From Candidatus Lokiarchaeum ossiferum (GTDB lineage Archaea > Asgardarchaeota > Lokiarchaeia > Sigyniarchaeales > Promethearchaeaceae): 32,000 bases of DNA. Positions 476-28,248 of the stretch are shown here, one piece after another. Both the position numbers and the translations under genes were made by a program. The notes beneath the pieces are model-generated. The model ran no database searches, was not told where the DNA came from, and saw nothing but the letters and a program-made list of their open reading frames with translations. How positions within the stretch are numbered: the first letter of the stretch is position 1; every line of letters begins with the position of its first letter. Where the stretch lies: positions 3,270,001 to 3,302,000 of the forward strand of contig CP104013.1 of assembly GCA_025839675.1 (NCBI GenBank). Direction: 5' to 3'.

Positions 476-3400
476 ATGAAACCAAAAAAATTAATCTTCA
501 TCTTTTTTGTAGGAATCCTCATGGTCCCCATCTTCCCCCAAGCGCAACTTTCCTTCGCAAGTGCAACGGTGGGTCAAAGTAATGGAGTCTGGGAAATAAC
601 CTATAATACTGATGATAGTGCAAATGTTGGTCCACTCTATGATGCCAACGGATATACTGCAATTTCCGAGTTAGATCCTGCAAGTTCAACCAATACATGG
701 TACGATTATTCCCCATTAGAAGCAGGACATCAAGAATTAGACTTTGAATGCAATATCAAATTTGAAAATGGAGGTCGGAAACACATTTATCTGTATTTGG
801 ATAACGATCCCTCCCAATATTTCCTACTGCAATATGAAAATGGGGATGTGTTTTCATACACTACAGATAATTGGGTAAAACAAAGCCAAAATATGGATTA
901 TAGTTATAATACTTGGCTGTCGTTTCAGTTAGAACTGATTCAAACCAGCTCCACCACAAAATTATTAACCGTAACTTTAGGAACCGATTCTTTTTCGATC
1001 GAACTGGATAGTGACAGTACTGTTGACGCACTCAAAATGCGCACAATGACGGCCGGAAGTTCCGTCTTCTTTTCTGACGTCGAAGTGTCTTATTTGGAGG
1101 AATCCTGGCAAAGAATTTATCCTGCGGAAAGCTCTGCATCTGCAATACCCCTTAATGATGAAACGGACGATGGACAGCTGTATTCAGATATTTATGAATT
1201 GGAGATGGACGTGGGACTGAATACGTGGTATGAATATACCAAATCGGGAATTGAATACAATTTCTTGCATTTTGATTGCAATTTGAAATTTCTGGATGGA
1301 GGAGCTAGAAAATGGTATTTTTATTTTGATGATGGGGCTTATTTCATTATCAACTTCGAAAATCAATGGATCAGATCATATGTTTCGAATGCTGACGTGC
1401 CAAACTGGGTTTCTCAGAGGTCTTACGGCTATGGGGATTGGAATCATATCGAATTTGATATCGTTCAAAAGAATTCTGTAACGAAAGAATTAAAAATGAG
1501 CATAAATGGGCTCCCATTTACTTATCCTGTCCTTATGTCTAGTGGATTCAATGTGAAAATTGAATACTTAAGAGTGCGTCTTCAAACTAGCGGAAGTCTT
1601 TTGATTTCCGATATGGCAGTCGATAATGATCAGGATGGATTGGATGAGGTTGAGGAAGCTATGCTAGGGTCTGATCCTCTCCTTAAAGATACTGATGGCG
1701 ATTTTGCTTATGATGGGGAAGAAGCCTCTATCTATGGAACGGATCCAACGGTTCCCGATGAGGCAAATGGTTTTACACTGATCTATCCAGAAGGTGGTCC
1801 AGGCAGAGTTGATATTTCCACAGATTCATCTACCGGTTCAAAGATATATCAGCTAAATTCGGAAGGTTCATCTAATACTTGGTTTCAACATCGATTGAAT
1901 GGCCTAAGAGCTCAATCTGTCGGATTTCATTGTAAAATAAAAGTGCATGATTCTCAAGAAAAATACTTGTACTTCTATTTTGACGATGGTGATTATTTCA
2001 TAGTTCGATTTATTAATCTACATCTCTATACCACCTATATTCATAATGGGGTTGGCAACGGGTGGAGGGATCAGTATATTTATTATGGGGACCAGGATTG
2101 GTTGGATTTATCAATCACTATTACTGGAGGACCCAATATCAAAACATTAGATGGATCTTTAGATGGAAATCCCTTTGATGATTCCGAATTCATGTATTCG
2201 AAAGGTGTTTTTGACAAGCTTAAAACCCGCCAAACTGGAACGGATAATTTGTGGAGTTTCACGGAGTTTATGATTGATTCGGATTTGGATGAGTTATCTG
2301 ATGTAGAGGAACTTGATTTAGGCACCGACCCGACGGATGCGGATTCGGATGGGGATGGGTTAACCGATGGAGAAGAAGTCAATAATCATGGCACTAACCC
2401 TCTAGTGGCGGATTCGGATGGTGATAAATTTTCTGATCTCCTCGAAATTCGTGGGAAATTAAATCCTATGGATCCCAGCGATGTATTTACAGATGAATGC
2501 ACCCTTGGAGGTTATGTTCCAAGCGAATGGGTGATTCCAAGCTCAGATGTGGGCATCCAAGCAATACCAAATGATTGGGATGATACTAGTTATTTAAGCG
2601 ACAATTTTATGCTCTCTATCAGTCCCACATATCGGCACGATTCTCGCAGTATAGAAATTCCATTACAACAACTAGATGTCATGGAAAATTTTGCATTTTC
2701 ATGTTATGTTGGGCAAAATTGGTTAGGAGGTGAAGAATCATGGCAAATTTATATTAAAGATACTTCAGGAAAAGGTTTTGCTTTGAACTATAAAGGTGAT
2801 CAATTCTACATTAGTGATACTACACTTCTTTCTTTCAGCTCGGATATTATTCAAGTACCTAATCCAAATAAAATTATGCATGAAATGAGGATAACCTTAA
2901 AATTTGTTGGCGATCATACCGATATTTTCCTATATTTTGCAGATACTTCAATGGGTAACTACTCCATCGAGATGGGAAAAATGTTATCCAAAATCATTGT
3001 TACTCGAACAACGACTTTTAATACTCCTGAGATACCCTCCTTTGGATTTGATAATTTTAAAATAATCCAATGGAAATGGCCTTATTATAAATTGATGGAA
3101 ACTTATCCTTCTAATGAAGGGAGAGATGGGCATTTAACCATTAATAACGTCCAAAAAGGCGTTGGTAAAGGACCTGGGTTCTATGAAATAATGTCCTCTG
3201 TCGATTTTGATCGGAATTGGAATGATGATGGTTTGGAAGGGATGCACTTGGATGGTTCTTTTTGTGATACAGGTTCCTTCAATTTTGTTTCTCATGCAAA
3301 ATTATTTGATATATTCGGGACTGGAATTACCCAACCTCAATCAAGTATAACTAAAATGGAACTTGATTTAAAGATCAATGGTCCTGATGGTCCTATCGAT

Positions 3401-3961
3401 TTATCTACAGCAAATGGAATCAGTAATCTAATAGATCCATACTTAATTAACATGATTGAAAATTTGGACACTATTACAGATTTAAATGAGGTTACTGAAA
3501 TTCTTGAAGGAGTTGGGACACTCTACCAAGTAACAGAACAATTATTAGATATGTATGATACCGTACCTGAATCACTTCAAGATGTTTTGGGACCAATTTC
3601 CCTGGTTATGGATCTTGTGGGTTTTTATTCTGAGGAAAATACACCACATCCCGAGTGGACTTGTGATACATTAGATAATGATCCTTATACCTATCAAGTC
3701 AAATATGACTTTGATTTCGTATCTGGAGTTTCTTGGGGTAGTACAAATTTTGCTATGGGATTTAATTTAAATTTTTACGAAGTAATTGAACATCTTGAAG
3801 AAACAATGGATATTGGTGACAGATACACTTTTACGATAACTCAAAGAACATTCTTGACTGGGATTTCCTATAATTGGATCTTTGGAAGATGGGAAGAATC
3901 CACAGAAATTATGGTTGAAGATACTTTTAAATTTGAACTCACATCCACCGATTCTTTTTAG
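476..3961 (+). CDS. Giant secreted multidomain protein 1 (1161 aa): signal peptide, 4 ConA/LamG-like modules, two TSP3-like Ca-binding repeat blocks, ~290-aa C-terminal domain of unknown function
   Basis: Long uninterrupted ORF. The N-terminus MKPKKLIFIFFVGILMVPIFPQAQLSFASA looks like a signal peptide. Repeated ~170-190 aa beta-rich modules share NTW[YF]...F.C.[IL]KF..GG.[RK]K..Y.YFDDG.YF and end in D[ND][FIV]x[IV]. DxDxDG motifs are present (DNDQDGLDEVEE, DTDGDFAYDGEE, DADSDGDGLTDGEE, DSDGDKFSDLLE). Confidence 0.9.
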   Translation: MKPKKLIFIFFVGILMVPIFPQAQLSFASATVGQSNGVWEITYNTDDSANVGPLYDANGYTAISELDPASSTNTWYDYSPLEAGHQELDFECNIKFENGGRKHIYLYLDNDPSQYFLLQYENGDVFSYTTDNWVKQSQNMDYSYNTWLSFQLELIQTSSTTKLLTVTLGTDSFSIELDSDSTVDALKMRTMTAGSSVFFSDVEVSYLEESWQRIYPAESSASAIPLNDETDDGQLYSDIYELEMDVGLNTWYEYTKSGIEYNFLHFDCNLKFLDGGARKWYFYFDDGAYFIINFENQWIRSYVSNADVPNWVSQRSYGYGDWNHIEFDIVQKNSVTKELKMSINGLPFTYPVLMSSGFNVKIEYLRVRLQTSGSLLISDMAVDNDQDGLDEVEEAMLGSDPLLKDTDGDFAYDGEEASIYGTDPTVPDEANGFTLIYPEGGPGRVDISTDSSTGSKIYQLNSEGSSNTWFQHRLNGLRAQSVGFHCKIKVHDSQEKYLYFYFDDGDYFIVRFINLHLYTTYIHNGVGNGWRDQYIYYGDQDWLDLSITITGGPNIKTLDGSLDGNPFDDSEFMYSKGVFDKLKTRQTGTDNLWSFTEFMIDSDLDELSDVEELDLGTDPTDADSDGDGLTDGEEVNNHGTNPLVADSDGDKFSDLLEIRGKLNPMDPSDVFTDECTLGGYVPSEWVIPSSDVGIQAIPNDWDDTSYLSDNFMLSISPTYRHDSRSIEIPLQQLDVMENFAFSCYVGQNWLGGEESWQIYIKDTSGKGFALNYKGDQFYISDTTLLSFSSDIIQVPNPNKIMHEMRITLKFVGDHTDIFLYFADTSMGNYSIEMGKMLSKIIVTRTTTFNTPEIPSFGFDNFKIIQWKWPYYKLMETYPSNEGRDGHLTINNVQKGVGKGPGFYEIMSSVDFDRNWNDDGLEGMHLDGSFCDTGSFNFVSHAKLFDIFGTGITQPQSSITKMELDLKINGPDGPIDLSTANGISNLIDPYLINMIENLDTITDLNEVTEILEGVGTLYQVTEQLLDMYDTVPESLQDVLGPISLVMDLVGFYSEENTPHPEWTCDTLDNDPYTYQVKYDFDFVSGVSWGSTNFAMGFNLNFYEVIEHLEETMDIGDRYTFTITQRTFLTGISYNWIFGRWEESTEIMVEDTFKFELTSTDSF
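1628..1771 (+). repeat. TSP3-like Ca-binding repeat block 1 of giant protein 1 (within CDS)
   Basis: Translation DNDQDGLDEVEEAMLGSDPLLKDTDGDFAYDGEEASIYGTDPTVPDE shows the DxDxDGxxDxxE pattern of thrombospondin type-3 repeats. Confidence 0.7.
2276..2483 (+). repeat. TSP3-like Ca-binding repeat block 2 of giant protein 1 (within CDS)
   Basis: Translation DSDLDELSDVEELDLGTDPTDADSDGDGLTDGEEVNNHGTNPLVADSDGDKFSDLLE. Contains the GC-rich conserved DNA island at 2321-2359. Confidence 0.8.
2321..2359 (+). repeat. GC-rich conserved DNA island, copy A (GGCACCGACCCGACGGATGCGGATTCGGATGGGGATGGG)
   Basis: Differs at only ~4 positions from the identical 39-mers at 6500-6538 and 9653-9691. Uses CCG/ACG/GCG/TCG codons, which look rare elsewhere in this AT-rich window. 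Confidence 0.85.
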
Positions 3962-4010
3962 ATTTTTATTGCTTTTTTTTTCTCAGGCTATAAGTATATT
4001 TTTTTTCTCA
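3962..4010 (+). terminator. Oligo-T tracts downstream of giant gene 1 (putative archaeal terminator)
   Basis: T5, T9 and T8 runs lie directly after stop codon 3959-3961. Archaeal RNA polymerase terminates at oligo-T tracts. Confidence 0.45.
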
Positions 4011-4157
4011 TTTTTGATAATATTTTCTTGATTTAAACGGAGAAAATATGAGTTATGAAATTTTGATGAAAATCAAGAAATTCTTTTCATTATGAAAACC
4101 CGAAAAATAAGAAGAAAAACATCTTTCCGAAACATCCATTGATATCTCATCAAGCAC

Positions 4158-4300
4158 CTATAAAAAGATCACGATTGTGATAGTTGTGCAAATTGCGAGT
4201 GGTTTTTATAGATCAAAAGCAGTATTATGGATGTAACCATTTGAATACAAAAGGATAAATGGACAAAAGTGAGAAACCGATTTTTGTTCCACATCTCCTT
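4158..4300 (+). promoter_or_regulatory. Conserved upstream module, copy 2, in front of giant gene 2
   Basis: CTATAAAAAGATCACGATTGTGA...GCGAGTGGTTTTTATAGATCAAAAGCAGTATTATGGATGTAACCATTTGAATACAAAAGGAT. About 90% identical to copy 1. Starts 212 nt upstream of ATG 4370. Confidence 0.6.
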
Positions 4301-4369
4301 AATAGTAATTTTTCAATATCCTTTTTGTATTCTACTTGAACAATATTTAAAAGAAAAAAGGTAAACATA

Positions 4370-7300
4370 ATGAATCAAAAAAAAAGACTGCTATCGTTAT
4401 ATGCGTTGCTTCTTTTGACCTGTTCCGCCTTAATATATACTAATATGGGAACTGGGGTCGCAGAAATCAATATTTCAGAATGGACAAATGTGCCAAATTA
4501 TGGTCCTTCGGAATTATCCAATTTCATGGATGAAGATCGAGGGGAGGTAATGAAAATATATGATGCCGGATGGGGATTAGTCCAAAAGGATATAATTCCG
4601 CAATATATTGCAGGAAACAAAATTTGGTATTCCTATTGCGTGAAAGTAACTGGTGGGGAATCGAATGATTATGGGGGGGTGAATTTAAGCCCATCTACCA
4701 TCAACACTGGGGCCGTAGGAATGCGAATTCATGCGGGAACGAGTTTAAAATATTGGCTTGGAGATGGACAAGAGCATGATACATTCATTGACGTAGAAAC
4801 AGATCAATGGTACCACATAGGATGTTCATATGAGTCTGATGGTCAATTCGAAGCATATTTGGATGGGGAGATGATCCTTTCAGAACAAGCCAAGCCTATC
4901 AGCAATTTAAATTATGTTTATGCTGCAACATGCTCCCAATCAACTTTTCTGGATGATATCTATGTTGGAGTTTCTAAGGATGAAGCATTTAATAGTTTCC
5001 AAGATGAAGTAACTACCATACTAATTGATGATTTTTCGGAAGATTCGATTGGGTTTTTACCCTTAGATTGGGAACTAACTGCAGGCGGATATTCATCTTT
5101 TAGAACTGTAGAACTAGCCGAATCTCCATATGATCAGGTTTTAAGAATCTATGATTATGGACAAATTCCCACCGTATACTCAAAAGTGGAAAAAAAAATT
5201 CCCGCTGGTTTTGGATCTATTGAATGGGATTTAAAAACAGATTCACCAGGAAATAATAATGGTTATTTCGGATTGATGGAAGGGGATAATTGGTTGATAT
5301 CGATTGGGATAATAAATAATCAATTCAGAGTTTATTACCACAATGATCATGCTTCGTATAGTGTCTACGACACAAACGTTGTTGCTTCAAATCAATGGAC
5401 CCACCTTAAAATGGAGTATGATGGCGAGCAAGATGATTGTCGAATATTTGTTAATGGGGTTGAGGTAAGAAGTACACCATTCAATACAAAATATGCCTCT
5501 TTTGTTGATGGTCTATATTTACACTCAGGAGAAACTGGATCTGGAAAAAGTTATTATGACAACATTCAAGTGAACTGGGTAAAACAGCGTGTGGATTCTT
5601 TTATGGAATATGCTGGCATTATCAATTTTGATGATAGTTACAATCAAGATCCTCTAGCAAGCTGTCAAGAATGGTCTTCCGATGTTAATTCGGGCTATCA
5701 AATCCTAGATGCAGTGACCACACACTCAAGTGTATTGGCAATAACCGATTTAGTTTCTTCTTCGAGCTGCTTTACAAAACTAAACATTAATACTCCTTTA
5801 GGGGTTGGAGGCTGTGTAGAAGGATGGATATCTGGATCGAGTATCATAAATAATGCGTATATGGGCATTAATTTTGGGGATAATTACTGGTTATTGTCCG
5901 TGGGGATCAATAATGGTCATTTTAAAGTTTATCATCGAACGAGCTATTCAACATATAGTACCGCTGTTTCTACCATAGAAGCAAATCCAAATCAATGGTA
6001 TTTTGTTTGTTTATATTATGATGGTATGTCTGATATTTGTACTGTATCGATAAATGGTGTTACTATTGGACAATATAGTCTTTATGACGTTGCTGGAATT
6101 ACATCAATATATCTCCATTCGGGAGAAAATGGGGGGGGTACAAGTTACTATGACTCAATTTCGTATGATTGGGCAAATGAATATGATGCAGGAGATGCAA
6201 GAATAATAGACTTCGATAGGGACCATTTAAGCCACAAGTATGAAGAGACCCATATTTATGAATCTGGATTAAAAACTTCTCCTTGGAAATGTGATTCTGA
6301 TAATGATAGGGTAAATGATTGGGATGAAATCTGTGGTATCTACGGATATATTACTGATCCAACTCGGATTGACTCTGAACCGATTGGATCTGAAGATGGG
6401 CTGAATGATTATTTAGAATTATTTAGATATCATACCGATCCAACTCACTATGATTCTGACCGTGATGGGCTGACTGATGGAGATGAAGTCAACTTATATG
6501 GCACCGACCCGACCACGGCGGATTCGGATGGGGATGGGTTGACCGATGGGGAAGAAATAAATGGGTATGATATGATGTATCTAGACGAGCTTTATCATGA
6601 ACATAAATATGCAACATATTATACAAATCCGCTTCTTGTTGATTCAGATAATGATAATTGGAGTGATAAGCAAGAACTTGATTTGATACAAGCTGATTTA
6701 GATCAAATTCATGAACCTAATCCTGCGGTAGATAACTATCGGTATTTAGATCCAATGTGCCGAGATAGTGATTTAGATTTTCTTCCCGATGGATGGGAAG
6801 AATATTATGGACTCGATCCTTGTGAATATAATTCAGAGCTGGAATTAATCGAAAACAATGTTCCTGATATATATTATTTCTTTGCGCCAATTCAAGAACC
6901 AGATCAAGAACGGGTCTCGGGATTGCGAATTGCCTTGATATTCATTAATCCAGACATAGTTTCGCCAAGTTGGGCAAATTATTACTCTCGAGTCTTCGAT
7001 AAGCTAAATTATGATGTAGTGCATGTTTATACAGGTTACACCCGAAATCAGTTTTATAATGAATTGTATCAGTGGACACCCCTTATTCAAGCGGATGATG
7101 AATTATTTATAATGATCCAAGGACATGGGCTGGTGGAGGACAATGAAGAAGAAACTCCGTTGGCGTATTTCACTCTTTATGATGACGATGAGGTGTTTGA
7201 CCAGGATGTTGGTGAAATTTCGGGACAAGAGTTTTTAAATCGATTGAAGTTATTTAGTGCCTACAGGAAATGTGTGTTTTTTGATACCTGTTTCGCTGGA

Positions 7301-7618
7301 AAAGTGCTTGAAAATTTCGATTCGGAAATAACTAAAGTCTTTCAAACTACTGATGCCACCCACGCACAGTATAGAACAGTCAGCAAATTTGATAAGATTA
7401 TGCAGAATGCTAAGTGGGAGAAAAGAAATACTTATGTTGCATCATTTTTCTGGGATACTTTAGGTGCAACCACTCTAAGTGAAGATCCAATTTTCAAATA
7501 TATTCAGGCGGATTTGGCATTTGGTTCTCTTTTACCGTGGAGTCGAACGGGTTATCAAGGAGGAACTATTTTGAATCCGGGCTGGAATTATTTGGAACGT
7601 TATAATATATTTGTCTAA
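4370..7618 (+). CDS. Giant secreted multidomain protein 2 (1082 aa): signal/anchor segment, 3 LamG-like modules, long TSP3-like repeat region, C-terminal caspase-like (clan CD) peptidase domain
   Basis: Long ORF with hydrophobic N-terminus LLSLYALLLLTCSALIYTNMGTGVA. LamG-type signatures: QWYHIGCSYESDGQFEAYLDGE, NQWTHLKMEYDGEQDDCRIFVNGVEV, NQWYFVCLYYDGMSDICTVSINGV. TSP3 motifs: DSDRDGLTDGDE, DSDGDGLTDGEE, DSDNDNWSDKQE. The C-terminus carries an H-G / D-x-C-x-x-G dyad. Confidence 0.9.
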   Translation: MNQKKRLLSLYALLLLTCSALIYTNMGTGVAEINISEWTNVPNYGPSELSNFMDEDRGEVMKIYDAGWGLVQKDIIPQYIAGNKIWYSYCVKVTGGESNDYGGVNLSPSTINTGAVGMRIHAGTSLKYWLGDGQEHDTFIDVETDQWYHIGCSYESDGQFEAYLDGEMILSEQAKPISNLNYVYAATCSQSTFLDDIYVGVSKDEAFNSFQDEVTTILIDDFSEDSIGFLPLDWELTAGGYSSFRTVELAESPYDQVLRIYDYGQIPTVYSKVEKKIPAGFGSIEWDLKTDSPGNNNGYFGLMEGDNWLISIGIINNQFRVYYHNDHASYSVYDTNVVASNQWTHLKMEYDGEQDDCRIFVNGVEVRSTPFNTKYASFVDGLYLHSGETGSGKSYYDNIQVNWVKQRVDSFMEYAGIINFDDSYNQDPLASCQEWSSDVNSGYQILDAVTTHSSVLAITDLVSSSSCFTKLNINTPLGVGGCVEGWISGSSIINNAYMGINFGDNYWLLSVGINNGHFKVYHRTSYSTYSTAVSTIEANPNQWYFVCLYYDGMSDICTVSINGVTIGQYSLYDVAGITSIYLHSGENGGGTSYYDSISYDWANEYDAGDARIIDFDRDHLSHKYEETHIYESGLKTSPWKCDSDNDRVNDWDEICGIYGYITDPTRIDSEPIGSEDGLNDYLELFRYHTDPTHYDSDRDGLTDGDEVNLYGTDPTTADSDGDGLTDGEEINGYDMMYLDELYHEHKYATYYTNPLLVDSDNDNWSDKQELDLIQADLDQIHEPNPAVDNYRYLDPMCRDSDLDFLPDGWEEYYGLDPCEYNSELELIENNVPDIYYFFAPIQEPDQERVSGLRIALIFINPDIVSPSWANYYSRVFDKLNYDVVHVYTGYTRNQFYNELYQWTPLIQADDELFIMIQGHGLVEDNEEETPLAYFTLYDDDEVFDQDVGEISGQEFLNRLKLFSAYRKCVFFDTCFAGKVLENFDSEITKVFQTTDATHAQYRTVSKFDKIMQNAKWEKRNTYVASFFWDTLGATTLSEDPIFKYIQADLAFGSLLPWSRTGYQGGTILNPGWNYLERYNIFV
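6290..6833 (+). repeat. TSP3-like Ca-binding repeat region of giant protein 2 (within CDS)
   Basis: Translation CDSDNDRVNDWDE...YDSDRDGLTDGDEVNLYGTDPTTADSDGDGLTDGEE...VDSDNDNWSDKQE...RDSDLDFLPDGWEE. Confidence 0.8.
6500..6538 (+). repeat. GC-rich conserved DNA island, copy B (GGCACCGACCCGACCACGGCGGATTCGGATGGGGATGGG)
   Basis: Read directly: 39/39 identical to 9653-9691, although the flanking codons and the rest of the two genes are highly diverged. Confidence 0.9.
6911..7420 (+). other. Caspase-hemoglobinase fold (peptidase clan CD: caspase/metacaspase/legumain-like) domain at the C-terminus of giant protein 2
   Basis: The order of elements fits the fold: RIALIFINPD (beta1), then ...VHVYTGYTRNQFYNEL..., then DELFIMIQGHG (His919, codon 7124-7126), then KCVFFDTCFAGK (Cys974, codon 7289-7291). 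The His-Gly and D-x-C-x-x-G motifs are ~55 residues apart, as in clan CD cysteine peptidases. Confidence 0.6.
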
Positions 7619-7628
7619 ATTTCGGGAT

Positions 7629-7984: not shown

Positions 7985-8054
7985 TGTTAGCTATGAAGGG
8001 CAGACTATTGAAATTTTTGGCGAACTTCTACTCCTTGGTCTTTCTGAAATTCAC

Positions 8055-8126
8055 TTAGTTTATATTGATGATGAGCCGTAAATTCCAATTCTCGAGATCG
8101 AAGGGGACCTCGGAGGGGAGGGGCAT
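8055..8126 (-). pseudogene. Truncated remnant (23 codons, MPLPSEVPFDLENWNLRLIININ*) of the gene whose intact 5' end is at 222-1
   Basis: Own translation. It has the same position and orientation relative to upstream-module copy 3 as ORF 1-222 has to copy 1. Compare the N-termini MPPFAEFPFCLEN and MPLPSEVPFDLEN. It is also locally GC-rich. Confidence 0.5.
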
Positions 8127-8150
8127 GAATCGCCCTATGTTTTTGGGATG

Positions 8151-8295
8151 CTATAAAAAAAACTCGCTTGTGACAGAAGTGTAAATTTCGTGTGGTTTTT
8201 ATAGATCAAAGTCAATATTAAGCATGTAGCCATTTGAATGCAAAAGGATGAAATGACAAAACTGGAATTCAAGCTATCGTCTTTGCCTCTTCCAT
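8151..8295 (+). promoter_or_regulatory. Conserved upstream module, copy 3 (diverged), in front of giant gene 3
   Basis: CTATAAAAAAAACTCGCTTGTGACAG...GTGTGGTTTTTATAGATCAAAGTC...CATTTGAATGCAAAAGGATGAAATGACAAAACTGG aligns along its length with copies 1 and 2. Starts 200 nt upstream of ATG 8351. Confidence 0.55.
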
Positions 8296-8350
8296 TCCTC
8301 ACCTTGATTTTCTGCCAAAAGTTCTTCAATGGGATACAGTGTGATAAAAA

Positions 8351-11149
8351 ATGTTGGATAAAAATAAAAAAGGCAAGAAGAAATTGTCCTTGGGATCTAA
8401 AATCGGAATGTGCCTCTTCATTGTTGCGATGATCTCTACCAATAGCCCAAATCTGATAAAAAGCGCTTCAGCAATTTCCGTGAATGATTGGGAATTAAAT
8501 CCTGAATGGGAAGGGTGGGAAGAGGATTCTACTCTTGGAAATCAATATACACGCGTCGCTGAATATTCAGATTTAGGCTCACGAGATCCGGTGTTGGGAC
8601 TCCGCGATGGTTCCTATTATGGAGAAGCGAAAATAAAGAATGAATTTCCCAACCAACCTGCGGGGGCTTTTTCCACCGAATTGAAAATCGTTGAAACCTC
8701 TTATGGAAATGAGGATTGTTCTTTTATTCGATTTTATTCAGGAACAACAATTGCTGCTGCTTTAATTATTGATAATAATTTTAGATATGCTCCTGACCAA
8801 GGAGTATCCGATGCCCCTATAAGATCGATCAATGTGGAATTGGAGACGTGGTACCACTTTGCTGCTGAATGGAATAGTCAAGCAACTGGAACTAATGAGT
8901 GGACATTTTACATTAACGGTCAAATTATTGCTCAGTTCGATTCGACCAATCCGTTTTCAGGAATTAATAATATCACAATTAGTACATATCTTGGCGATAT
9001 AACTCATAATCTGACCTTACATAACCTACGACATATGGATGATTCTTCCACAATTAACCAAATTTGGGAAGAAGATAAATTTTTTGAATGGACTAGCGGT
9101 GGGACGAATCAATGGTGTCATATTTCGACTAACATTTTTGAAGATCGAAACGTGTTAAAACTAAACGATGGTTCATGGGTCGGGGAAGCAATCGCAACAG
9201 CGAACTTTGATTTATCCGAAAAGGGATCGTTTTCTACAAATATTCGAATTGTTGATTCTGGTTATGGAGAAACAGATTGTTTCCTAATTAGATTTCTCTC
9301 AGGATCGACTGTGAGCAGCTATATGACCATGTGGGAAGATCAAGGTGTAAATACGATCAGATTTTGTGGATCTGACGGCAATTCTTACCCCACAGGATCA
9401 ACATACTCTACTAATGTGTGGAATGATGATTTCAAAGCCGAATGGGATTGCTCAGGAAGTGGTAAAGACCAATGGGTTTTTTCTCTGGGAGGCACAGTAA
9501 TAAAGACATTTGAATCTGAAAAATACACTTCAGGAATTAATCAAATTTCGATTCGCTCTTTATATAGCAAACCAACCAATTATGTCTATTTTAATGATAT
9601 TCAAATCGATTCGGATGATGATGGTCTATCACGTAAAGAAGAATTGCTCTTTGGCACCGACCCGACCACGGCGGATTCGGATGGGGATGGGCGCGAGGAC
9701 GGGGTGGAGATTAGATATATGACAAATCCTATAATAAATGAAGTCTTTTGGGAAGATTTTGAAGAAATTTCTTTACCAAGTGGATATATTGATAATGGAG
9801 ATACTATCGGAGAGTGGCAAGTGGCTAAAGATAATGATGATTTTTGTGATCTATATGTCGATCAGAGTCCAAGCTATTGGGGAGAATCTTCTCAAGTTTT
9901 ATGGCTTCATACTACTGATGAAAGTCTCATTGATATTTATAAAAATGATATCGCTTCATCTGGAGATAATTTGGTTTATTTTCGCTCCTCTATTAGTATA
10001 GGACAGCTTCAGTATCAACAGTTTTATGTTGATTTTACCTATGGAACTTCTTCACGCTTGCATTTTCTGTTTTCTAGTGGAGAATTATTTTTCTGGGATT
10101 CCTATTATATATATGGGAAACACCTTACTGCTTATAAACCTGTATATGATGCAGCGAGCAATGTTGTTGTTTATAGTGAAGATCAAAAAATTGATTTCGA
10201 AGTATTCATTGATAAGGACCAATCCACTTGGACTCTGAAATGGAATGGACAAGCAATAATGAAGCAATATGATCTTGATTTTGGTAATACTTTTAATCGA
10301 GTGATTTTAGGCACACCATCAACATCTTCTGGACGAGTTTTTCTTGATGATCTCGTTTTTGAACATGGGAAAATCACTAAAGATGATTCGAAGACCTTAT
10401 ACAATAAAATAGTTCCGAATATAGTCGCCTGTTTACCTGGGTTCAATGAGGAATTCTCTGAAGATTCTATTGGCGATACTAGCCTTGTAGGATTAGAAAT
10501 ATCATCAATCGTTTCTCGAGATACTGAGTATTCCTTCAATTTTCCTTTTGTTTCAGTTAGTTATGATGATGAAATTGAAACGGGTCCACATCATGATGAG
10601 GTTCGAACAATTGGTCAAGAACATTGGTATTGGTACTATAAAATTTATGGAGATATTGAATTTTACTCAATCGACTTAACAGAGTATTCATATTCTGCTT
10701 CCTTTTTGGCATTTTATTCATTTGACCCATATTCAACTCAAAACACCGTACTTACCAATCATCCCTATTCAGATCTCCGCGATGATTGCTCGTATTTAAA
10801 TCAGGAAACATTTGATTATTGGGTCCAGCCATCATATACTTCTGAATACTCTTGTCCTCAACAATACACGGATTCTGGGAGTCAAACTCAAAAAGGATGG
10901 GATTACACCATTAGTAAACAAACCACATTAGGATTGAATTTTGAGTTATCCTTTGCCACACCAGTCCAATCAATTTCTCTTCCCCTTGGCATATCTTTTG
11001 CATTCAATGTTGAACGAGATTTAGATTTCTGGTACTATCTGATATTGAAAGATACCCATACTTCTACTAAATCAGTAACTTATAATATGAATGCCAATGT
11101 AGCTAAAGGTTTTTATACTTTTTTTATTAGTGATTTTAAGATTCACTAA
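8351..11149 (+). CDS. Giant secreted multidomain protein 3 (932 aa): signal/anchor segment, 2 tandem LamG-like modules, TSP3-like repeats, a third module, ~230-aa beta-rich C-terminal domain
   Basis: Long ORF with N-terminus KKKLSLGSKIGMCLFIVAMISTNSPNLIKSASA. Duplicated modules: (...GSYYGEAKIKNEF...GAFSTELKIVETSYGNEDCSFIRFYSG...) and (...GSWVGEAIATANF...GSFSTNIRIVDSGYGETDCFLIRFLSG...). TSP3 motif: DSDDDGLSRKEELLFGTDPTTADSDGDGREDGVE. Confidence 0.9.
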   Translation: MLDKNKKGKKKLSLGSKIGMCLFIVAMISTNSPNLIKSASAISVNDWELNPEWEGWEEDSTLGNQYTRVAEYSDLGSRDPVLGLRDGSYYGEAKIKNEFPNQPAGAFSTELKIVETSYGNEDCSFIRFYSGTTIAAALIIDNNFRYAPDQGVSDAPIRSINVELETWYHFAAEWNSQATGTNEWTFYINGQIIAQFDSTNPFSGINNITISTYLGDITHNLTLHNLRHMDDSSTINQIWEEDKFFEWTSGGTNQWCHISTNIFEDRNVLKLNDGSWVGEAIATANFDLSEKGSFSTNIRIVDSGYGETDCFLIRFLSGSTVSSYMTMWEDQGVNTIRFCGSDGNSYPTGSTYSTNVWNDDFKAEWDCSGSGKDQWVFSLGGTVIKTFESEKYTSGINQISIRSLYSKPTNYVYFNDIQIDSDDDGLSRKEELLFGTDPTTADSDGDGREDGVEIRYMTNPIINEVFWEDFEEISLPSGYIDNGDTIGEWQVAKDNDDFCDLYVDQSPSYWGESSQVLWLHTTDESLIDIYKNDIASSGDNLVYFRSSISIGQLQYQQFYVDFTYGTSSRLHFLFSSGELFFWDSYYIYGKHLTAYKPVYDAASNVVVYSEDQKIDFEVFIDKDQSTWTLKWNGQAIMKQYDLDFGNTFNRVILGTPSTSSGRVFLDDLVFEHGKITKDDSKTLYNKIVPNIVACLPGFNEEFSEDSIGDTSLVGLEISSIVSRDTEYSFNFPFVSVSYDDEIETGPHHDEVRTIGQEHWYWYYKIYGDIEFYSIDLTEYSYSASFLAFYSFDPYSTQNTVLTNHPYSDLRDDCSYLNQETFDYWVQPSYTSEYSCPQQYTDSGSQTQKGWDYTISKQTTLGLNFELSFATPVQSISLPLGISFAFNVERDLDFWYYLILKDTHTSTKSVTYNMNANVAKGFYTFFISDFKIH
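9608..9731 (+). repeat. TSP3-like Ca-binding repeats of giant protein 3 (within CDS)
   Basis: Translation DSDDDGLSRKEELLFGTDPTTADSDGDGREDGVEIRYMTNP. Confidence 0.8.
9653..9691 (+). repeat. GC-rich conserved DNA island, copy C
   Basis: 39/39 identical to 6500-6538. Confidence 0.9.
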
Positions 11150-11872: not shown

Positions 11873-12555
11873 ATTTGCTCTAGAGATGCCCTACTATTTA
11901 TGTTTGTTGCTTGGTTTAAGTTCAATTATGTATCCATGATATATAAGTGAAGTATGATAGATCGATAAATTATATTTATAAGGATGCGTTTCATACAATT
12001 ATGTATCAAACACAGATCAAGCACGAGTAATGCTGATTCTTTTTGAACATGTCTTCCGAGTTTATAAGTTTCAAAAAGTAATTACAGTATCATAAATCTG
12101 GAAAAACAGATCTGTTTGGTAACCTATAGATTAGCGACAAACGTCCCAAGAGGTCTCATTATGTCTCAAAAACCTAGAATATCAATAACAACAGGGCAAA
12201 GGTCAACATCCTGTGTCAATCCTACCAAGTCTCCGTCAGAACCGCACGGATCTCCCATATCTGCCATCAATCCATTGGCAGATCAATCGCTTTCTCCTTC
12301 TGGATCTAAATTTTATTATCAGTATTTTAACGATCAAAATCATATTGAATGTTTTTGAACGTGAGCGATTATTATGGGAAAGCACTCATGAGGAACTCAG
12401 CTACTTACTTTTACATGTATCCAATAAAAATGACCTTATATCATCTCTATCAACAAAAAAGAGCTTCAAAATTAAAGGATCAGATAATCTTACCTTATGC
12501 TAGATTTCAATAAAAAATCATGATCAGATTTAATTTTGGAATATTAGAAAAAGAT

Positions 12556-12661
12556 TGGTGGGAAAGGTGGGCTTCGGACCCACGACCTCTGCCTTATCAG
12601 GGCAGCGCTCGATTGCCTTCATATGAAGAGATACATACAATCCAGGCTAAGCTACTCTCCC
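12556..12661 (-). tRNA. tRNA-Ile (anticodon GAU) with a ~28-30 nt insertion (putative non-canonical intron) in the D-loop and an encoded CCA
   Basis: Hand fold of the minus strand. Acceptor stem GGGAGAG/CUUUCCC. D-stem GCUU/GAGC enclosing a 38-nt loop. Anticodon arm CUGCC-CUGAUAA-GGCAG. Variable loop AGGUC. T-arm GUGGG-UCCGAAG-CCCAC. Discriminator A plus CCA. Caveats: T-loop position 55 is C rather than the near-universal U, and the intron boundaries were not resolved by eye. Confidence 0.7.
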
Positions 12662-12695
12662 GTTTCTGTTTTTACAAAACTGTCTGATATTTAAC

Positions 12696-12705
12696 AATTT
12701 TATAA
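12696..12705 (-). promoter_or_regulatory. Possible TATA box (TTATAAAATT) for the tRNA-Ile gene
   Basis: An A/T-rich TATA-like octamer lies 35-44 nt upstream of the mature 5' end, compatible with a short leader removed by RNase P. Confidence 0.3.
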
Positions 12706-13244
12706 TAGTCGGGATAAACAGACTATAATTGTCACTCATGATGGAACAATTAAAAAATTTCCGATTTTCATTCCATAAAAAGTTCTCTGTTTCAATCCGA
12801 ACAGTGGTTTGACAGTTTTAGGGGATTCAATTTACATGGGTGGCATTTGCTTCGTGGGGGGGAATTGTCGAAAGTATATAAGAATCTAGGATCTAAAAAA
12901 AAAGTCGAGTTGTGCGAAAAAAACCAAGAAATCGCAATGTGAGAAGGACAATTTTTTACAACAACTGAGCAAAGAAAAACCATAGAATACTAGGAATTAT
13001 AAAATGGATTTCAGAGATTTGAGTGAAGAAGGGGTAAAGTTTTAAAAAAAATTGAAAGAAATAGTTTTTTGAAAGAAAGTGGGAAGATTCCACATAATTC
13101 TTCAAGTAATTTATTATTTACAAGCGTCTCAAGTTCTACATCGGTGGAGGATTTTAAAATCAAAGAGATTTTTTCATTTGTCATGGATCTTTTTTGATCG
13201 AATCTTTTTTAATTATTTATGACTAAATATAAATTAAGATAAAA

Positions 13245-13709
13245 ATGAAAGACAAACAAAATGTAGGAAATTCTGGAGAATATTATATTGCAGCTTTCCT
13301 TTCTGCACGAAATTTTATAGTAACCATCACCCTAGGAAGAGCTATTGGCTATGATTTATTAGCGGTCAATCCAAGCGGAAAGTTAATCAAAATATCTGTA
13401 AAAACTCGCGATTCAAACTCAACTCATAGATTTGTGTTATCAGAAAAATCTGAGTCATTAAAATCCGAGGATCTGTTCTATGCATTTGTTAGAACGAATA
13501 AATTTGAATCTCTACCCGATTTTTGGATGATTCCATCAAAAATTGTTGCTGAGCAAACATATAATAGCCATAAGAAATGGCTTCAAGAAGATAGCAATCA
13601 CAAGGATAATACAATGCGAACATTTTGGGTGAAAAATCATGATCTTTTCCCAAAGAATTGGGGAGAAACAATGGAGCAATATCATAATAGTTATTCTAGT
13701 TTGCTATAG
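13245..13709 (+). CDS. Putative PD-(D/E)xK-fold (restriction endonuclease-like / Hjc-YraN-like) nuclease, 154 aa
   Basis: The N-terminal pattern GEYYIAAFLSARNFIVTITLGRAIGYDLLAVNPSGKLIKISVKT matches the (G)E-helix, D-strand and [ESQ]xK-strand arrangement of PD-(D/E)xK nucleases. This is pattern recognition only. Confidence 0.5.
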   Translation: MKDKQNVGNSGEYYIAAFLSARNFIVTITLGRAIGYDLLAVNPSGKLIKISVKTRDSNSTHRFVLSEKSESLKSEDLFYAFVRTNKFESLPDFWMIPSKIVAEQTYNSHKKWLQEDSNHKDNTMRTFWVKNHDLFPKNWGETMEQYHNSYSSLL

Positions 13710-13864: not shown

Positions 13865-13986
13865 TCAGGGAAAATCTCAGTTCATCCTTTTGCATTCAAT
13901 ATTTGAACACTATTCATAGGGTGATATTTCTATTTAAACACCGTGGTAATAGCAAAATAATCACTCATGTGATCTTTTTATATTTA
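13865..13986 (-). promoter_or_regulatory. Conserved upstream module, copy 5 (orphan; same subtype as copy 4)
   Basis: The minus strand reads AAATATAAAAAGATCACATGAGTGATTATTTTGCTATTACCACGGTGTTTAAATAGAAAT...ATATTGAATGCAAAAGGATGAACTGA. It is collinear with copy 4 (20602-20470) and shares the TGAATGCAAAAGGATGAA core with copy 3. No giant gene follows; there is only a 51-codon ORF at 13845-13690. Confidence 0.55.
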
Positions 13987-14227: not shown

Positions 14228-14609
14228 TTTTTTCCCTCTTGCCCATCCAAAATGTTCTTATAGTATTTATTAGATCCCCACCTTTTAAAATAGATTTTGA
14301 AAAGAAAATAAGGAAAAAAAAATCCAGCAAAAAGATAGAAAGATATAAATAAATTATCGGTAACTTGCTACGGTAGTATAAACATAGTGAAATGTTGCCC
14401 CAGCATTGATACATTTGGGGTAGATTTCTTTAGGAATTGTATTAATCGAAGATATTATTTCCGTTAACGCTAAAACGAAACTTTTATACCGTCAAACTCC
14501 CGTATGAGAGTAAAAGTGCAGCCAAACCAGATAGGAATAAAATGGAGTTGAATGATGTAATAAAAAAAAATTTGTAATAAAAGGGGTTTTGGGAAATTGA
14601 AAGGGAGTT

Positions 14610-14882
14610 TTATTTCTTCATTTTATTCCCAGAGGGTTTGTTGTTCTTTAAACGACGATTCTCAATAGAATTTGCTTGAGCTCGAGTTTTTGTAGTCTTC
14701 ACAGATACTTTTGAAAAGTGTTTACTTGGATCCTGATGATGTTCTTTGATCCTTCTGTTAAGATTATTCGTCATCCCAGTATAAGCGGTTTTTCCTGATT
14801 TAGACTTTAAATTATATACACCAGGGGATTTTGGAATTTTAGAACGACTTTTTTTTGTGTTAGAATATGTTTTCGATGTCAT
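14610..14882 (-). CDS. Small GIY-YIG nuclease-superfamily protein (90 aa)
   Basis: PGVYNLKSKSGKTAYTGMTNNLNRRIKEH matches GIY-(x9-11)-YIG followed by the conserved R...(K/E)H of GIY-YIG domains. The tails are basic. Confidence 0.7.
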   Translation of the reverse strand: MTSKTYSNTKKSRSKIPKSPGVYNLKSKSGKTAYTGMTNNLNRRIKEHHQDPSKHFSKVSVKTTKTRAQANSIENRRLKNNKPSGNKMKK

Positions 14883-15504: not shown

Positions 15505-16299
15505 ATGAATAATATAATTCCTCAAGAACGAAATATTTTAATTGTACCAATTGGATTAGAAATAGACCGCGTAATTGCAGGATGCAAACTATATCCAATT
15601 AATGTTATATATCTCTTACATAATCCGCTTGTGGATTCAACCAAATTTGCAGTAGAACGATATTCAAGTTATTTTGCAAAAGAAGTTAAGAATAGGATAG
15701 GGAGTTCTTTCAATAAAATAGAAGAAGAAATTACAAATTTAGGTTCTTTTCATGATTCATTAACATGTTTGAACAGAATAATGAAATTGGAAGAAAAAAT
15801 AGAAAGATTGGGACATATCTACATAAATATATCGACAGCATCAAAAACCTTCGCAATGGCAGCTTATTTATTTGCAAGTAGAAAACCAGAACTTTTCACC
15901 TTATTCTATTTACAATCAAACAAATACATCCTACTAGAGCATTTTAATAAAGAAAATTCTTCTTTGGATAAACTGGAAGAAGAATTTAGAAAATCTGGTT
16001 TAACTCAAGGCGATTTTGAAGTAGAAGAAATTCCAATTTTGAAAACAGAATGGTTCAATAAAGAGGAAGCAGAAATTTTACGTATTTTCGATGGAAATAG
16101 ATCTTTTGATTCATTATTGGAGTTGATAGCTAATCTGAAACAGGAAAATAATCCAAAAAACAGAATGAAGATCAGAAGAATACTTAACAAATTTGAAGAT
16201 CTTGGAATCATTCAGATGAAAAAACGTGGAAAAAATTTAATTATAACTCCTACAAAAAAACACAGCAGTATTTCAAATATGACTGGAGTTTTTTACTAA
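15505..16299 (+). CDS. Putative transcriptional regulator: Csa3/CARF-like Rossmann N-domain (HFX_2341/DUF6293-like) plus C-terminal winged helix
   Basis: NILIVPIGLEIDRVIAG...IYINISTASKTFAMAAYLFAS resembles, from memory, the VHIVPVGFxYDRV / VNVSxxPRxxxFA motifs of that family. The C-terminus (ILRIF...SFDSLLELI...RRILNKFEDLGIIQMKKRGKNLIITPT) looks like a wHTH. An A/T-rich TATA-like stretch lies just upstream. Confidence 0.5.
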   Translation: MNNIIPQERNILIVPIGLEIDRVIAGCKLYPINVIYLLHNPLVDSTKFAVERYSSYFAKEVKNRIGSSFNKIEEEITNLGSFHDSLTCLNRIMKLEEKIERLGHIYINISTASKTFAMAAYLFASRKPELFTLFYLQSNKYILLEHFNKENSSLDKLEEEFRKSGLTQGDFEVEEIPILKTEWFNKEEAEILRIFDGNRSFDSLLELIANLKQENNPKNRMKIRRILNKFEDLGIIQMKKRGKNLIITPTKKHSSISNMTGVFY

Positions 16300-16584
16300 T
16301 CCTCACATTTTTAGATAGAAAAAAACCCCCCTTGATGTTATTTGTGCTGATGCAGTCTCAACAGCATAAGGTTTCAAAAGGTGTGCATTAGCTAGTATTA
16401 GATTTTTAATGCATTACACTCAATGAATTAGCCCATTAATCGAATCTCAAATTTCATAATTATTTTGGAGTAAAAATGCAATATCACGAGCTCGAGTAGA
16501 GATTGAGTAAAATAAATTGCCTTCCAACTGAAAATATAAAAGAATAAATTTCAAATTAAATATGTCCATTTTTTGATTGATCGT

Positions 16585-16693
16585 ATATTGAATGCCTACT
16601 CATAAAAAATAAAACCATAAATACTTCCTCAGCGAAGTAATCACATACTTTTTTGATGGAATAGATACTTAAGTATGACCCCATGGACCAATT
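16585..16693. repeat. Direct repeat, left copy (DR-L), flanking the giant gene 4 cassette
   Basis: ATATTGAATGCCTACTCATAAAAAATAAAACCATAAATACTTCC (44 nt identical), then ~85-90% identity up to ...AAGTATGAC..GACCAAT, when compared with 20717-20832. Confidence 0.85.
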
Positions 16694-16756
16694 TTCTCTC
16701 ATTTCAAATTTCGAATTAGGATCTTTGCTCCTTTAAATATTTTTCATAGATACTGG

Positions 16757-16788
16757 AAAGAAAGAAAAAAGAAAAGAAAAAAGAATAA
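16757..16788 (-). terminator. T-rich tract after giant gene 4 (minus strand CTTTCTTTTTTCTTTTCTTTTTTCTTATT)
   Basis: Oligo-T runs on the coding (minus) strand lie immediately downstream of stop codon 16789-16791. Confidence 0.45.
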
Positions 16789-19700
16789 TTAGCCTCGTAT
16801 TGTTGAAATAGTCATGAAATTTGAAGTAAATCTTCCATCTAATGGTTGGTTCGTACCATCAATGCTCATATAGAAACCTGTAGTTATTTCGAAATTAACA
16901 ATATAGGAAATTGCACTAGATTCAGAAACTAGATCAGTAAAGAAATGCTTCATTGTTATTTCTCCATTAAAATATTTCGCTGGATTCATTGTCAAATATC
17001 GTGAACCTAAATCAAAATCCCAAGAAAAATAGTTCCCTTGAATTGATTTTGTTAGAAAATTTGGTTGAAAAGCAGAAACCATCCCACCTCCAACATTTAA
17101 TGCGCCAACTAACTCGTCTAATGGCCCTAAGGGACCATCTGCTATATTACTACCGAATAGTAATAATAATTCAAAAATTGCATAGGCCTCTGTTCCGACG
17201 CTTGCATCATATTCATCACCAAGATTGATACCATCGGTCTCATAATTGATTTCAGCATCCCCTGAACTGGTCCTGGACACATCAAGGTCCAATGGATGTA
17301 CTGGAACACCATCAATAAGAATTCCCATTGATATGGTTAATCCTTGAAGATATGCCCACACATCGAAACCATTATAGTCTGGATGATTGATCTTCGTAGA
17401 TTCAACACCAGTTTGGAACCTTAAATCAACTTCTCCATTTGTAGCACTAAAATCATGAAAACCTCCATCTTCTTCAAGCAAACCCCAATCATATTGGAGA
17501 CCAAAATGACCTCCCAAATATCCAGAGCGAGGATCTGAACTGGAAAATTCGTGTTTGGGTCCAGCCGTCATATCATCATGTAAATTATAATAATTATTAT
17601 CAAGAAATTGATAGGTTGTTGGATTAGAATAGCAATTTTCATAATAATTAGAGATTTTTCCAAATTTGATGTTATCTACAAGAATATCTTGGGTTCCTTT
17701 AAAATAGAAACTTAAATAACTATACGAACTATCAGGAAGAACAGCTATCATAGGATAAGACACACGGCTTACCCCATCAATTCGAAAATCATAAGTATTG
17801 GTGTATCCATTCATTTCGACTTGAATGTTGTATAATGAATTCGGAGACAACTCTATTTGCTGAATTTTCTCACCTGTAGGAGTGAAAAAACCGATACTGT
17901 ATCCATAAAACTTTATAAATAGATTATAGTTCGTCTGAGGAATCATATTTGACCAGCCTAATTGTAACCACATTTCATCTATTCGAGTGCTTGTAAATAA
18001 ATCAAAGCTAATTACATTATTCTCAAAATTCTTTGAAGGATACACTTTTTTATTGAATCCCATAAATCCTTCAGACACATGGACCTTTAAGGCTTTTGAA
18101 GATTCTGTACCAAAGCCAACAGAATCTGCAACTACTTCAGTATATTGGTTTGAATTTTCTGAGAAACTAATTTCCCATCCATCTGGATTTGATCCGATGC
18201 TATCATATTCAAAATGTCCAATATTCCAGCTTAAATCACCTCTGTCGTACCCATTTTTAGGATCTGTTTTAAAAATTTTCACTTCTAATCCATCATTGAA
18301 CCCATCCTCATCCGAATCAGCATCCATCGGGTCGGTACCCAAGGCAATTTCTTCCCCATCTAAAAGTCCGTCATCATCCGAATCAGAATCTAAAGGATCC
18401 AATCTATTTGATGAAATAATCACATTATCTAGGTAAGTACTATATCCAGAATAACTGTTATAAGTTTCAAAAACAACACGTGAAATATAGGAAGCAGGTG
18501 AATAAAAAGCAAGATTTGAACCTATAGAGGAGGAACCTAGGAAAACCGAAAATGTATCCGTTGCAGTATCCCAACTGATTTTGAGATCTTTTTTCCATTC
18601 ATTACTCGCAATATTTTCCAACAAATGCCAAGAAGATCCGTCGTGATACTGCAGCCCATTATGGCCTCCATAACTTACAATTGCCATTAGAATTGCATTT
18701 GAACTACCTTGCCGTAAGAGTATATAAGTTATTTTCGCAGTATCAGTGGACATAATATCAAAAATCATTGATCCTTTTGTAGTATATTCAAAATTTTCAT
18801 AAATACCTGCAGAACCTGTTCCATGATCATACAATATAGCAGTATCATCATTCGGCCATGCTCCTGATCCAACGATGCATCCAGACCCTTGAATTTTCGT
18901 CCATCCTCCAAAAGGATTTTCATTCGCAGGGAATTCCCAAGAATTTAACTCGCGATTTCCATTTATATATGAAAATTCCACACAATCGCTTAATCCATCG
19001 TTGTCAGAATCAGAATTTGTTGGATCAGTATGTTCTCTAATTATAACATCGTCCACGTAGGCAGAATAACCGGTTTGGCTACTATAGGTTTGGAACTGCA
19101 TTCGAGAAATGGAGCTGACAGGATTATAGAAATCAAGGTTTTCAAATTTTTCTCCCGAATCTGGAAAATATATATTACAGGTGTCTGATAAGGTGTTCCA
19201 TGATATCTTGATAGATAACCAATCAGTATAGCTACATTCTTTCAACAAATTCCATTGGGTACCATCATGATATTGTATGCCATCTCCTTCTGCTGTACGA
19301 TAATTTGCCATTAATATCGCATTTGTGCTTCCTTGCTTCAAGAGAATATAGGTTAATTTAAAATTCGCATCAGTCCTGAATTCGAACTCCGCTGAACCAG
19401 AAATTAAGGAAGAATCAAAATTAGCATAAATTCCAGCGGTTCCCGTGCCATAATCATAAAGGCGAACGGCATTTGGATACGGCGTATTAACGCTATCTAC
19501 CACTGCACAACCGGATCCTGTAACGATGTTCCAATCCATCCCTAAGTCATCATCTACGCCATTATCTGTAAAATCCCAATCATAGAGTAAATTACTTCCT
19601 CCGATTCCACACATCTCATCAAAATCGGTCAATCCATCCCCGTCAGTATCGAAATCCTGTTCATAAAGAATTTCCATTTCCTCTTCAGAGAATGCTCTAT

Positions 19701-28244: not shown

Positions 28245-28248
28245 AACT

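Follow-up and report, generated by a model that had tools for sequence, protein, structure and literature searches.

Why do four neighbouring genes of an Asgard archaeon, which are diverged beyond alignment over most of their length, share a short GC-rich tract down to its synonymous sites? The question is raised by a 32-kb stretch of the Candidatus Lokiarchaeum ossiferum chromosome (contig CP104013.1, positions 3,270,001 to 3,302,000), hereafter the window, in which position 1 is the first nucleotide. An original prediction, made from the sequence of the window, had pointed to a 39-nt island within the TSP3 repeats of four genes, here called genes 1 to 4, and had listed gene conversion, a recombination joint, recent import and an RNA- or DNA-level signal as its possible causes. 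The window is the DNA that was analysed, and copies elsewhere in the 6.03-Mb chromosome lie beyond its scope. Here, we report that the island is a statistically solid local anomaly whose most likely cause is an ordinary one. The best explanation found, to which we give about an even chance of being correct, is that a single TSP3 unit lineage was recently copied, non-reciprocally, from one neighbouring paralogue to another, in other words short-patch ectopic gene conversion or, equivalently, the recent spread of a patch.

Copies of the island in genes 1 to 4

The 39-mer GGCACCGACCCGACCACGGCGGATTCGGATGGGGATGGG is found exactly at 6500-6538 in gene 2 and at 9653-9691 in gene 3, both on the plus strand, and had no match in 100 shuffles. 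The identity of 39 out of 39 nucleotides predicted for this pair proved one short of its true extent, as one extra upstream T agrees and the BLASTN alignment spans 40 nt. Both edges of this tract are abrupt, and beyond both its ends even the encoded residues differ. The gene 1 copy has the four mismatches that had been estimated, and the gene 4 copy has eight instead of the supposed four to five. The four copies are the following, with GC3 denoting the share of codons that end in G or C:

2321-2359, plus strand: island of gene 1, GTDPTDADSDGDG; four mismatches to the reference 39-mer, all in codons 5-6; GC3 9/13
6499-6538, plus strand: island of gene 2, GTDPTTADSDGDG; 40-nt tract identical to gene 3; GC3 10/13
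9652-9709, plus strand: island of gene 3; 9652-9691 identical to gene 2, then a private GC-rich extension to 9709
18301-18339, minus strand: island of gene 4, GTDPMDADSDEDG; eight mismatches; GC3 7/13

Two of the differences in the gene 4 island are synonymous, and both are changes from GC to T. The peptide GTDPT(T/D)ADSDGDG, which had been given for the island, does not cover gene 4, whose copy encodes GTDPMDADSDEDG. In gene 3 the private extension at 9692-9709 (CGC GAG GAC GGG GTG GAG) prolongs the GC-rich tract, which reads ...GATGGGCGCGAGGACGGGGTGGAG, and the 57-nt core at 9653-9709 is, at 74% GC and with a GC3 of 16/19, the GC-richest 57-nt stretch in the window. Ranked by GC-richness, the copies follow the order gene 3 > gene 2 > gene 1 > gene 4. 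Three of them lie in tandem, 3.2-4.2 kb apart, and the fourth, in gene 4, is inverted and farthest away; no island copy was found in the window outside genes 1 to 4.

Codon usage in the island

The island has G or C at 28 of its 39 positions (72%) in a window of 29-39% GC, which bears out the count and the background of roughly one third given in the original prediction. By direct count the peptide dictates 18 of these 28 bases, those at the first and second positions of the codons, and would be 46% GC if written in its commonest codons. The real anomaly sits at third codon positions. GC3 over the whole of genes 1 to 4 is 0.27-0.31, and among 7550 windows of 13 codons in 15 large open reading frames (ORFs) a GC3 of 10/13 is reached in 16, of which 14 are in the islands of genes 2 and 3. 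The codons responsible are seldom used, with values in the window of 0.10 for GGC, 0.13 for GAC, 0.09 for CCG, 0.09 for ACG, 0.15 for GCG, 0.09 for TCG and 0.17 for GGG, and in these genes of 0.09, 0.12, 0.09, 0.09, 0.16, 0.10 and 0.17 in the same order; CCG, ACG, GCG and TCG are thus as rare as had been suspected. Given the peptide, the probability of the observed codons is about 2e-9 to 4e-7 for each copy. CpG is also frequent, with five per copy (three in gene 4) against about one expected per 39 nt.

This codon style is not that of TSP3 repeats at large. Among the approximately 24 TSP3-like units with xDP or xNP in genes 1 to 4, a GC3 of 0.56-0.75 is seen in the four island copies only and the remainder range from 0.12 to 0.31, in agreement with the AT-rich codons noted earlier for other TSP3 motifs of the same genes. 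The rare ACC-GAC-CCG, TCG and GGG are common to all four copies and are not used by the other units there, some 20 in number; the second GTDP of gene 1, for example, is written GGA ACG GAT CCA in the AT-ending style. A TSP3-rich protein of the sister strain (L021, P0091) likewise uses AT-ending codons throughout its 21 TSP3-like units. A set of 64 TSP3 units defined by a stricter motif was drawn from three low-GC Asgard proteins (from the sister strain, a Promethearchaeota genome and a Kariarchaeaceae genome), and their GC3 is 0-0.46. A general habit of GC-ending codons in TSP3 repeats, which the original prediction had named first among the findings that would overturn it, was therefore seen neither in the approximately 20 units here nor in these 64.

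The triplet series GAT-TCG-GAT (Asp-Ser-Asp with the rare TCG) occurs eight times in the window, at 2276, 2342, 2411, 6521, 9608 and 9674 on the plus strand and at 18310 and 18376 on the minus strand. It is confined to TSP3 units of genes 1 to 4, partly outside the island, and is absent from the TSP3 units of P0091. Since it recurs in the former and never in the latter, the codons suggest that a single DNA template may have given rise to every TSP3 unit in this gene family.

Synonymous identity beyond the peptide

At positions where the residue is the same, codon identity is 60/68 (88%) in the island and 31/59 (53%) in the flanks, a comparison that covers 29 flanking codons, where GAT and GAA, the dominant codons, make up most of the matches. 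Under the codon usage found here, 13 identical codons out of 13 in genes 2 and 3 have a probability of about 1.5e-5, and the other pairs range from 5e-4 to 0.03. The proteins of genes 3 and 4 share just 24% identity over about 460 amino acids, so ordinary synonymous sites should be saturated. Because codon identity in the island exceeds that of the flanks and of what saturated sites would give, and because rare codons are shared, the claim that peptide conservation alone is insufficient for the synonymous identity is supported.

The length of the tract is also out of the ordinary. Other Asgard genes rich in TSP3 units, of which 16-29 were scored in each gene, have exact repeats between units of no more than 20-21 nt, written in common codons, and 40 nt in rare codons therefore exceeds this background. 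Logan assemblies are built with k = 31. In these short-read assemblies genes 1 and 4 are recovered whole (gene 1 in the runs SRR22273277, SRR32148621, SRR27313660 and SRR27313661) and genes 2 and 3 are not, which is the outcome expected of a real shared repeat that exceeds the assembly k-mer.

Architecture of the four genes

The island straddles two 23-residue TSP3 units, taking in GTDPxxA, with which the first closes, and DSDGDG, with which the second opens; nowhere is the repeat more strongly conserved than in these residues. The family PF18884 (TSP3_bac) has a gathering score of 25 bits; genes 1 and 4 score 47 and 50.7 bits, and genes 2 (24.5) and 3 (22.5) are just below the cut-off. The acidic consensus DxDxDG...D..E is arranged in tandem, as DSDGDGLTDGEE and related units with a 69-nt period, and is predicted to bind calcium. 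The four genes, all of which have signal peptide-like N-termini, and their TSP3 modules are the following:

476-3961, plus strand: gene 1, 1161 amino acids; signal peptide-like N-terminus, TSP3 units, remainder orphan
4370-7618, plus strand: gene 2, 1082 amino acids; LamG-like domain(s), TSP3 units, orphan C-terminal half
8351-11149, plus strand: gene 3, 932 amino acids; TSP3 module
16789-20415, minus strand: gene 4, approximately 1196-1208 amino acids; LamG, TSP3 units, orphan C-terminal half
2273-2440, plus strand: TSP3 module of gene 1; units around the island, the sole region with DNA similarity to the other genes (75-77%)
6434-6604, plus strand: TSP3 module of gene 2; unit period 69 nt
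9605-9691, plus strand: TSP3 module of gene 3; genes 1 and 4 are similar in DNA up to precisely the 3' boundary of the island and no further
18271-18417, minus strand: TSP3 module of gene 4

Similarity at the DNA level among the four genes is limited to 85-112 nt of the TSP3 module, at 75-77% identity. They had been described as otherwise diverged, which is correct and understated, as outside this module they are essentially unalignable. The N-terminal halves show a weak LamG-like similarity among genes 2 to 4 and none for gene 1. The C-terminal halves, beginning 30 residues past the island, have no mutual similarity and no Pfam matches. Each gene has a single GC-rich unit, and in each it is near the junction of the N-terminal half and the C-terminal half, the latter being unrelated from gene to gene.

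For gene 3, searched against 1.84 billion representative proteins, the best 150 of 6059 matches cover only residues 375-504 or so, mostly about 415-465, the position of the TSP3 module. In public protein sets genes 2 and 4 are matched in their TSP3 or LamG segments only; no relatives were found for gene 3 in metagenome contigs or for gene 1 in viral contigs. The island does encode the core of the bacterial TSP3 repeat (PF18884, DxDxDGxxDxxE), with ...GTDPxxA|DSDGDG... in the same 23-residue period, but this likeness is one of protein motif only and leaves the synonymous identity and the rare codons unexplained.

Proposed short-patch gene conversion

The nearest pair of copies changes from one segment to the next, from genes 3 and 4 in the left flank (0.75) to genes 2 and 3 in the island (1.00) and genes 1 and 2 in the right flank (0.67), over segments of 36-54 nt in four sequences, and gene 3 is unalignable immediately 3' of the island. 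The identity, the rare codons, the single unit per gene, the saturated flanks and this small-scale mosaicism are established. Conversion as the mechanism, its direction and the origin of its template are what we infer. In the proposed course of events, one TSP3 unit lineage with rare GC-ending codons would have reached four neighbouring genes for secreted or surface proteins, with a single copy in each, and the last event would have tied genes 2 and 3 together through the 40-nt tract. The GC-rich codons would then be a property of the copied template and not a selected signal. Copies that are rarely converted would drift back towards AT, as may have happened in gene 4, inverted and farthest, with its two synonymous changes from GC to T.

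Conversion is favoured by the exact tract with abrupt ends, the codon identity within the island, the shared rare codons, the age of the paralogues and their changing neighbours, and likewise by a length of 40 nt beyond the Asgard TSP3 background, the clustering of the copies and the failure of genes 2 and 3 to assemble whole in Logan. Among the causes first listed it fits best, on account of the abrupt 40-nt tract and the changing nearest pair. Short recombination tracts have been described in Sulfolobus. The locus resembles concerted evolution by ectopic conversion in its short near-perfect DNA tract in diverged clustered paralogues, its abrupt ends and its changing nearest neighbour; it differs in the shortness of its tract, about 40 nt, which lies on the most constrained peptide motif and is written in strongly atypical GC-ending codons. 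To our knowledge, almost nothing is known of the lengths and biases of recombination tracts in Asgard archaea, and if conversion is the true cause, the island would be a small, clean case of short-patch concerted evolution in one of them.

Several observations weigh against conversion. There are four copies and the segments are very short, such that the incongruence rests on tens of nucleotides. The ends of the tract coincide with the limits of the strongest residue conservation, which is predicted by site-specific constraint and not required by conversion. The flanks are only 57-75% identical and are therefore poor substrates for homologous recombination. Conversion accounts for the identity and not for the GC-rich template, and the extension of gene 3 at 9692-9709 has no partner among the four copies. 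A GC bias of conversion is undocumented in archaea; the single archaeal dataset of PMC4450053 had too little recombination to test it.

Alternative explanations

A GC-richer TSP3 gene, of a bacterium, a virus or another locus, may have been the source of the island through short-patch recombination or as a shuffled module, the four copies descending from a patch that is still un-drifted. We regard this as a minor though live possibility. The extension of gene 3 and the GC gradient suggest such a source, foreign or elsewhere in the genome and decaying towards host composition, because the 57-nt tract of gene 3 runs 18 nt beyond the shared island in private codons, GC is graded by copy and the synonymous changes of gene 4 go from GC to T. 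GC-biased conversion among the four copies alone fits the extension and the gradient less well. The 20-mer GCGGATTCGGATGGGGATGG was found in 20 GTDB genomes against about one expected by chance; nearly all have a GC content of 0.47-0.73, and the codon style is therefore typical of GC-richer TSP3 genes. Its carriers comprise one Thermoplasmatota genome and otherwise unrelated, GC-richer bacteria, and all differ from the 39-mer at six or more positions. It is also in keeping with an outside source that TSP3_bac is overwhelmingly bacterial and that the approximately 20-kb region is missing from a sister strain whose sequence, over the adjoining 11.3 kb, is 99% identical.

However, no donor was found. 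A degenerate 35-nt pattern covering all four copies had no match in the genome, metagenome and viral collections, and the closest match to the 39-mer elsewhere has six mismatches. Neither the 20-mer core nor a private 24-mer from the extension of gene 3 was matched in viral contigs. Scans of the genome-contig collection gave no Lokiarchaeum match, the strains in that collection not being established. The three Asp codons of DSDGDG are all GAT, unlike what a high-GC donor would be expected to contribute, and the genes as wholes are host-like, with the GC3 given above. Recent import, as first proposed, is thus left without an identifiable donor in these searches and is kept alive by the private GC-rich extension of gene 3.

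It appears improbable that the rare, CpG-rich codons are selected as such, whether as a translational pause before the C-terminal half (for folding, Ca2+ loading or secretion) or as a binding site in mRNA or DNA. Clusters of rare codons at domain boundaries have been linked to translational pausing, and the island, too, is a rare-codon cluster, located in a linker that joins large domains of secreted proteins. Each gene has just one such unit, always near the junction of the two halves; the codons are among the rarest in the window, CpG is in excess and conservation stops where the conserved peptide stops. However, a pause would keep the rarity of codons and not their identity, and in the island the identity too is kept; nothing similar is found in the 64 TSP3 units of related low-GC Asgard proteins. 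The RNA fold is neither stable nor shared, no Rfam match was obtained, an antisense ORF is not conserved and a downstream start codon is not consistent. Orthologues that would permit a test of conservation were not found in the protein, metagenome-contig and viral-contig collections searched.

Three specific signals were rejected and a fourth was dropped. For a structured RNA, the island with 30 nt on each side folded with z-scores from -0.86 to +0.64, differently in each copy, and matched nothing in Rfam. An overlapping antisense gene would need an ORF conserved across the copies, and none was seen. No start codon consistently follows the island, as read from the sequence, which speaks against an internal start or a site of Shine-Dalgarno type. 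With just two or three runs of at least three G, the copies gave no reason to retain the idea of a G-quadruplex. The RNA- or DNA-level signal put forward in the original prediction is accordingly unsupported, and a selected nucleotide-level role of either kind, pause site or recombination joint, has no positive support. The island would be of more weight only if it were a selected recombination or translation signal, and the present evidence does not support that.

As for a recombination joint, the island and an element upstream of the genes could be a homology anchor for programmed or recurrent exchange, deletion or inversion of surface-protein halves, to which we give a slim chance. The layout is indeed mosaic, with an upstream element of about 170 nt in genes 1 to 3, N-terminal halves that are unrelated or distantly related, the conserved island and unrelated C-terminal halves; the island of gene 4 is inverted, the locus is hypervariable between strains and gene 3 ceases to be homologous to genes 1 and 4 exactly where the island ends. 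Against this, the ORFs that were scanned with Pfam or NCBIfam yielded no recombinase, integrase or reverse transcriptase, and there are no promoterless or orphan cassettes with the island, as all four copies are within full-length genes. The inverted arms (gene 4 versus genes 2 and 3) are only 72-76% complementary, and relatives sharing one half only of genes 2, 3 or 4 are absent from public protein sets. A crossover between direct copies would delete genes and not switch them reversibly. The stronger form, in which the island and the upstream element are a dedicated anchor that recombines N- and C-terminal halves for surface diversity and GC- or CpG-richness promotes or marks recombination, has a slimmer chance still. 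A possible route for an anchor may be break-induced conversion tied to the neighbouring GIY-YIG or PD-(D/E)XK nuclease-like ORFs.

Known systems of this kind were considered and rejected. A shufflon or site-specific inversion is at odds with the lack of a recombinase domain in the scanned ORFs, which gave only weak PD-(D/E)XK, GIY-YIG and HFX_2341_N matches, and with the poor complementarity of the arms. A diversity-generating retroelement would require a reverse transcriptase, of which there is none in the scanned ORFs, and the differences between copies are not adenine-specific. Polymorphic toxins have demarcation motifs, such as VENN in CdiA and PxxxxDPxGL in Rhs. The island is similar to these as a short motif conserved in DNA before unrelated C-terminal regions of large secreted paralogues at a strain-variable locus. 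It is dissimilar in that the N-terminal parts are not conserved, being unrelated or about 24% identical, and in that the motif is a generic calcium-binding repeat; no immunity-like genes, orphan C-terminal cassettes or toxin domains were seen here, the C-terminal halves are without Pfam matches and no island copies lie outside the four genes. Chance or a repeat-specific codon habit, by which a GC-rich peptide and TSP3 units alike in DNA would suffice, can point to the 18 of 28 G/C bases forced by the peptide and to GAT-TCG-GAT in eight units of these genes, and is effectively refuted, with a negligible chance of being right, by the extreme GC3 of the island, the AT-ending codons of other units both here and in related genomes, and codon-usage probabilities of 1e-5 to 1e-9.

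Genomic setting

Two strains of Ca. L. ossiferum, B35 and B36, have been cultured (PMC9834061; bioRxiv 10.64898/2026.02.13.705702). On the right side of the window, housekeeping-type proteins cluster at 90% identity or above with proteins of the Ca. L. ossiferum sister chromosome, and positions 20715-32000 are 98.96% identical to the sister strain (CP163304.1, the stretch L022) over 11.3 kb. Synteny stops to the left, and the region of about 20 kb with genes 1 to 4 is absent from the sister strain. The place of gene 4 is taken in the sister strain by an unrelated, K/N-rich ORF of 1107 amino acids (L022 4826-8149, minus strand) with no Pfam match on record and with none of the acidic TSP3 motifs scanned for; ABC/PhoU genes lie further to the left there. 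Judged from the end of synteny and these sister genes, genes 1 to 4 lie in a strain-specific, hypervariable region. Cells of Ca. L. ossiferum have been seen to carry 'complex surface proteins' (PMC9834061), for which these strain-specific, orphan, secreted LamG/TSP3 proteins are candidates.

Gene 4 and its promoter are flanked by a direct repeat of 98 nt with 94% identity (16585-16682 and 20717-20814). The right copy is the exact start of the sister synteny (L022 8675 onward); only one copy exists in the sister strain. As the repeat is doubled here and single in the sister strain, with its right copy at the start of synteny, its arrangement suggests that gene 4 may be a cassette insertion or replacement.

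The upstream element of about 170 nt is found at 236-409, 4146-4319 and 8139-8312 on the plus strand, before genes 1 to 3, with 71-76% identity and with identical 30-nt blocks in genes 1 and 2. Weaker copies are at 20568-20619, 5' of gene 4 and in the minus orientation, and at 13929-13982, an orphan with no obvious gene. It holds a perfect 9-bp inverted repeat, CTATAAAAA-N37-TTTTTATAG, which resembles two facing TATA-type boxes, and is probably a shared promoter or leader. A further GC-rich element (up to 67% GC) is situated 5' of genes 1 and 3, at 182-239 and 8086-8143, with 74% identity between the two, and is among the few GC peaks of the window besides the islands and the tRNA.

A tRNA-like gene at about 12559-12664 (minus strand) ends in CCA and has an apparent intron; it was missed by ARAGORN and gave a partial tRNA match in Rfam of 23.6 bits. 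It sits within 12546-12863, the only piece of the variable region (318 nt) that is shared with the sister strain (92%), and its position would be the usual setting of an integration hotspot. Small ORFs between genes 3 and 4, at 13245-13709 (plus), 14610-14882 (minus) and 15505-16299 (plus), had weak matches to PD-(D/E)XK, GIY-YIG and HFX_2341_N, and their content may be described as nuclease-, mobile- or defence-like. Towards the right side, a gene for a TPR-type protein (25355-26701, minus strand) has internal repeats at multiples of 162 nt, with five copies of a 70-nt core at 63-81% identity.

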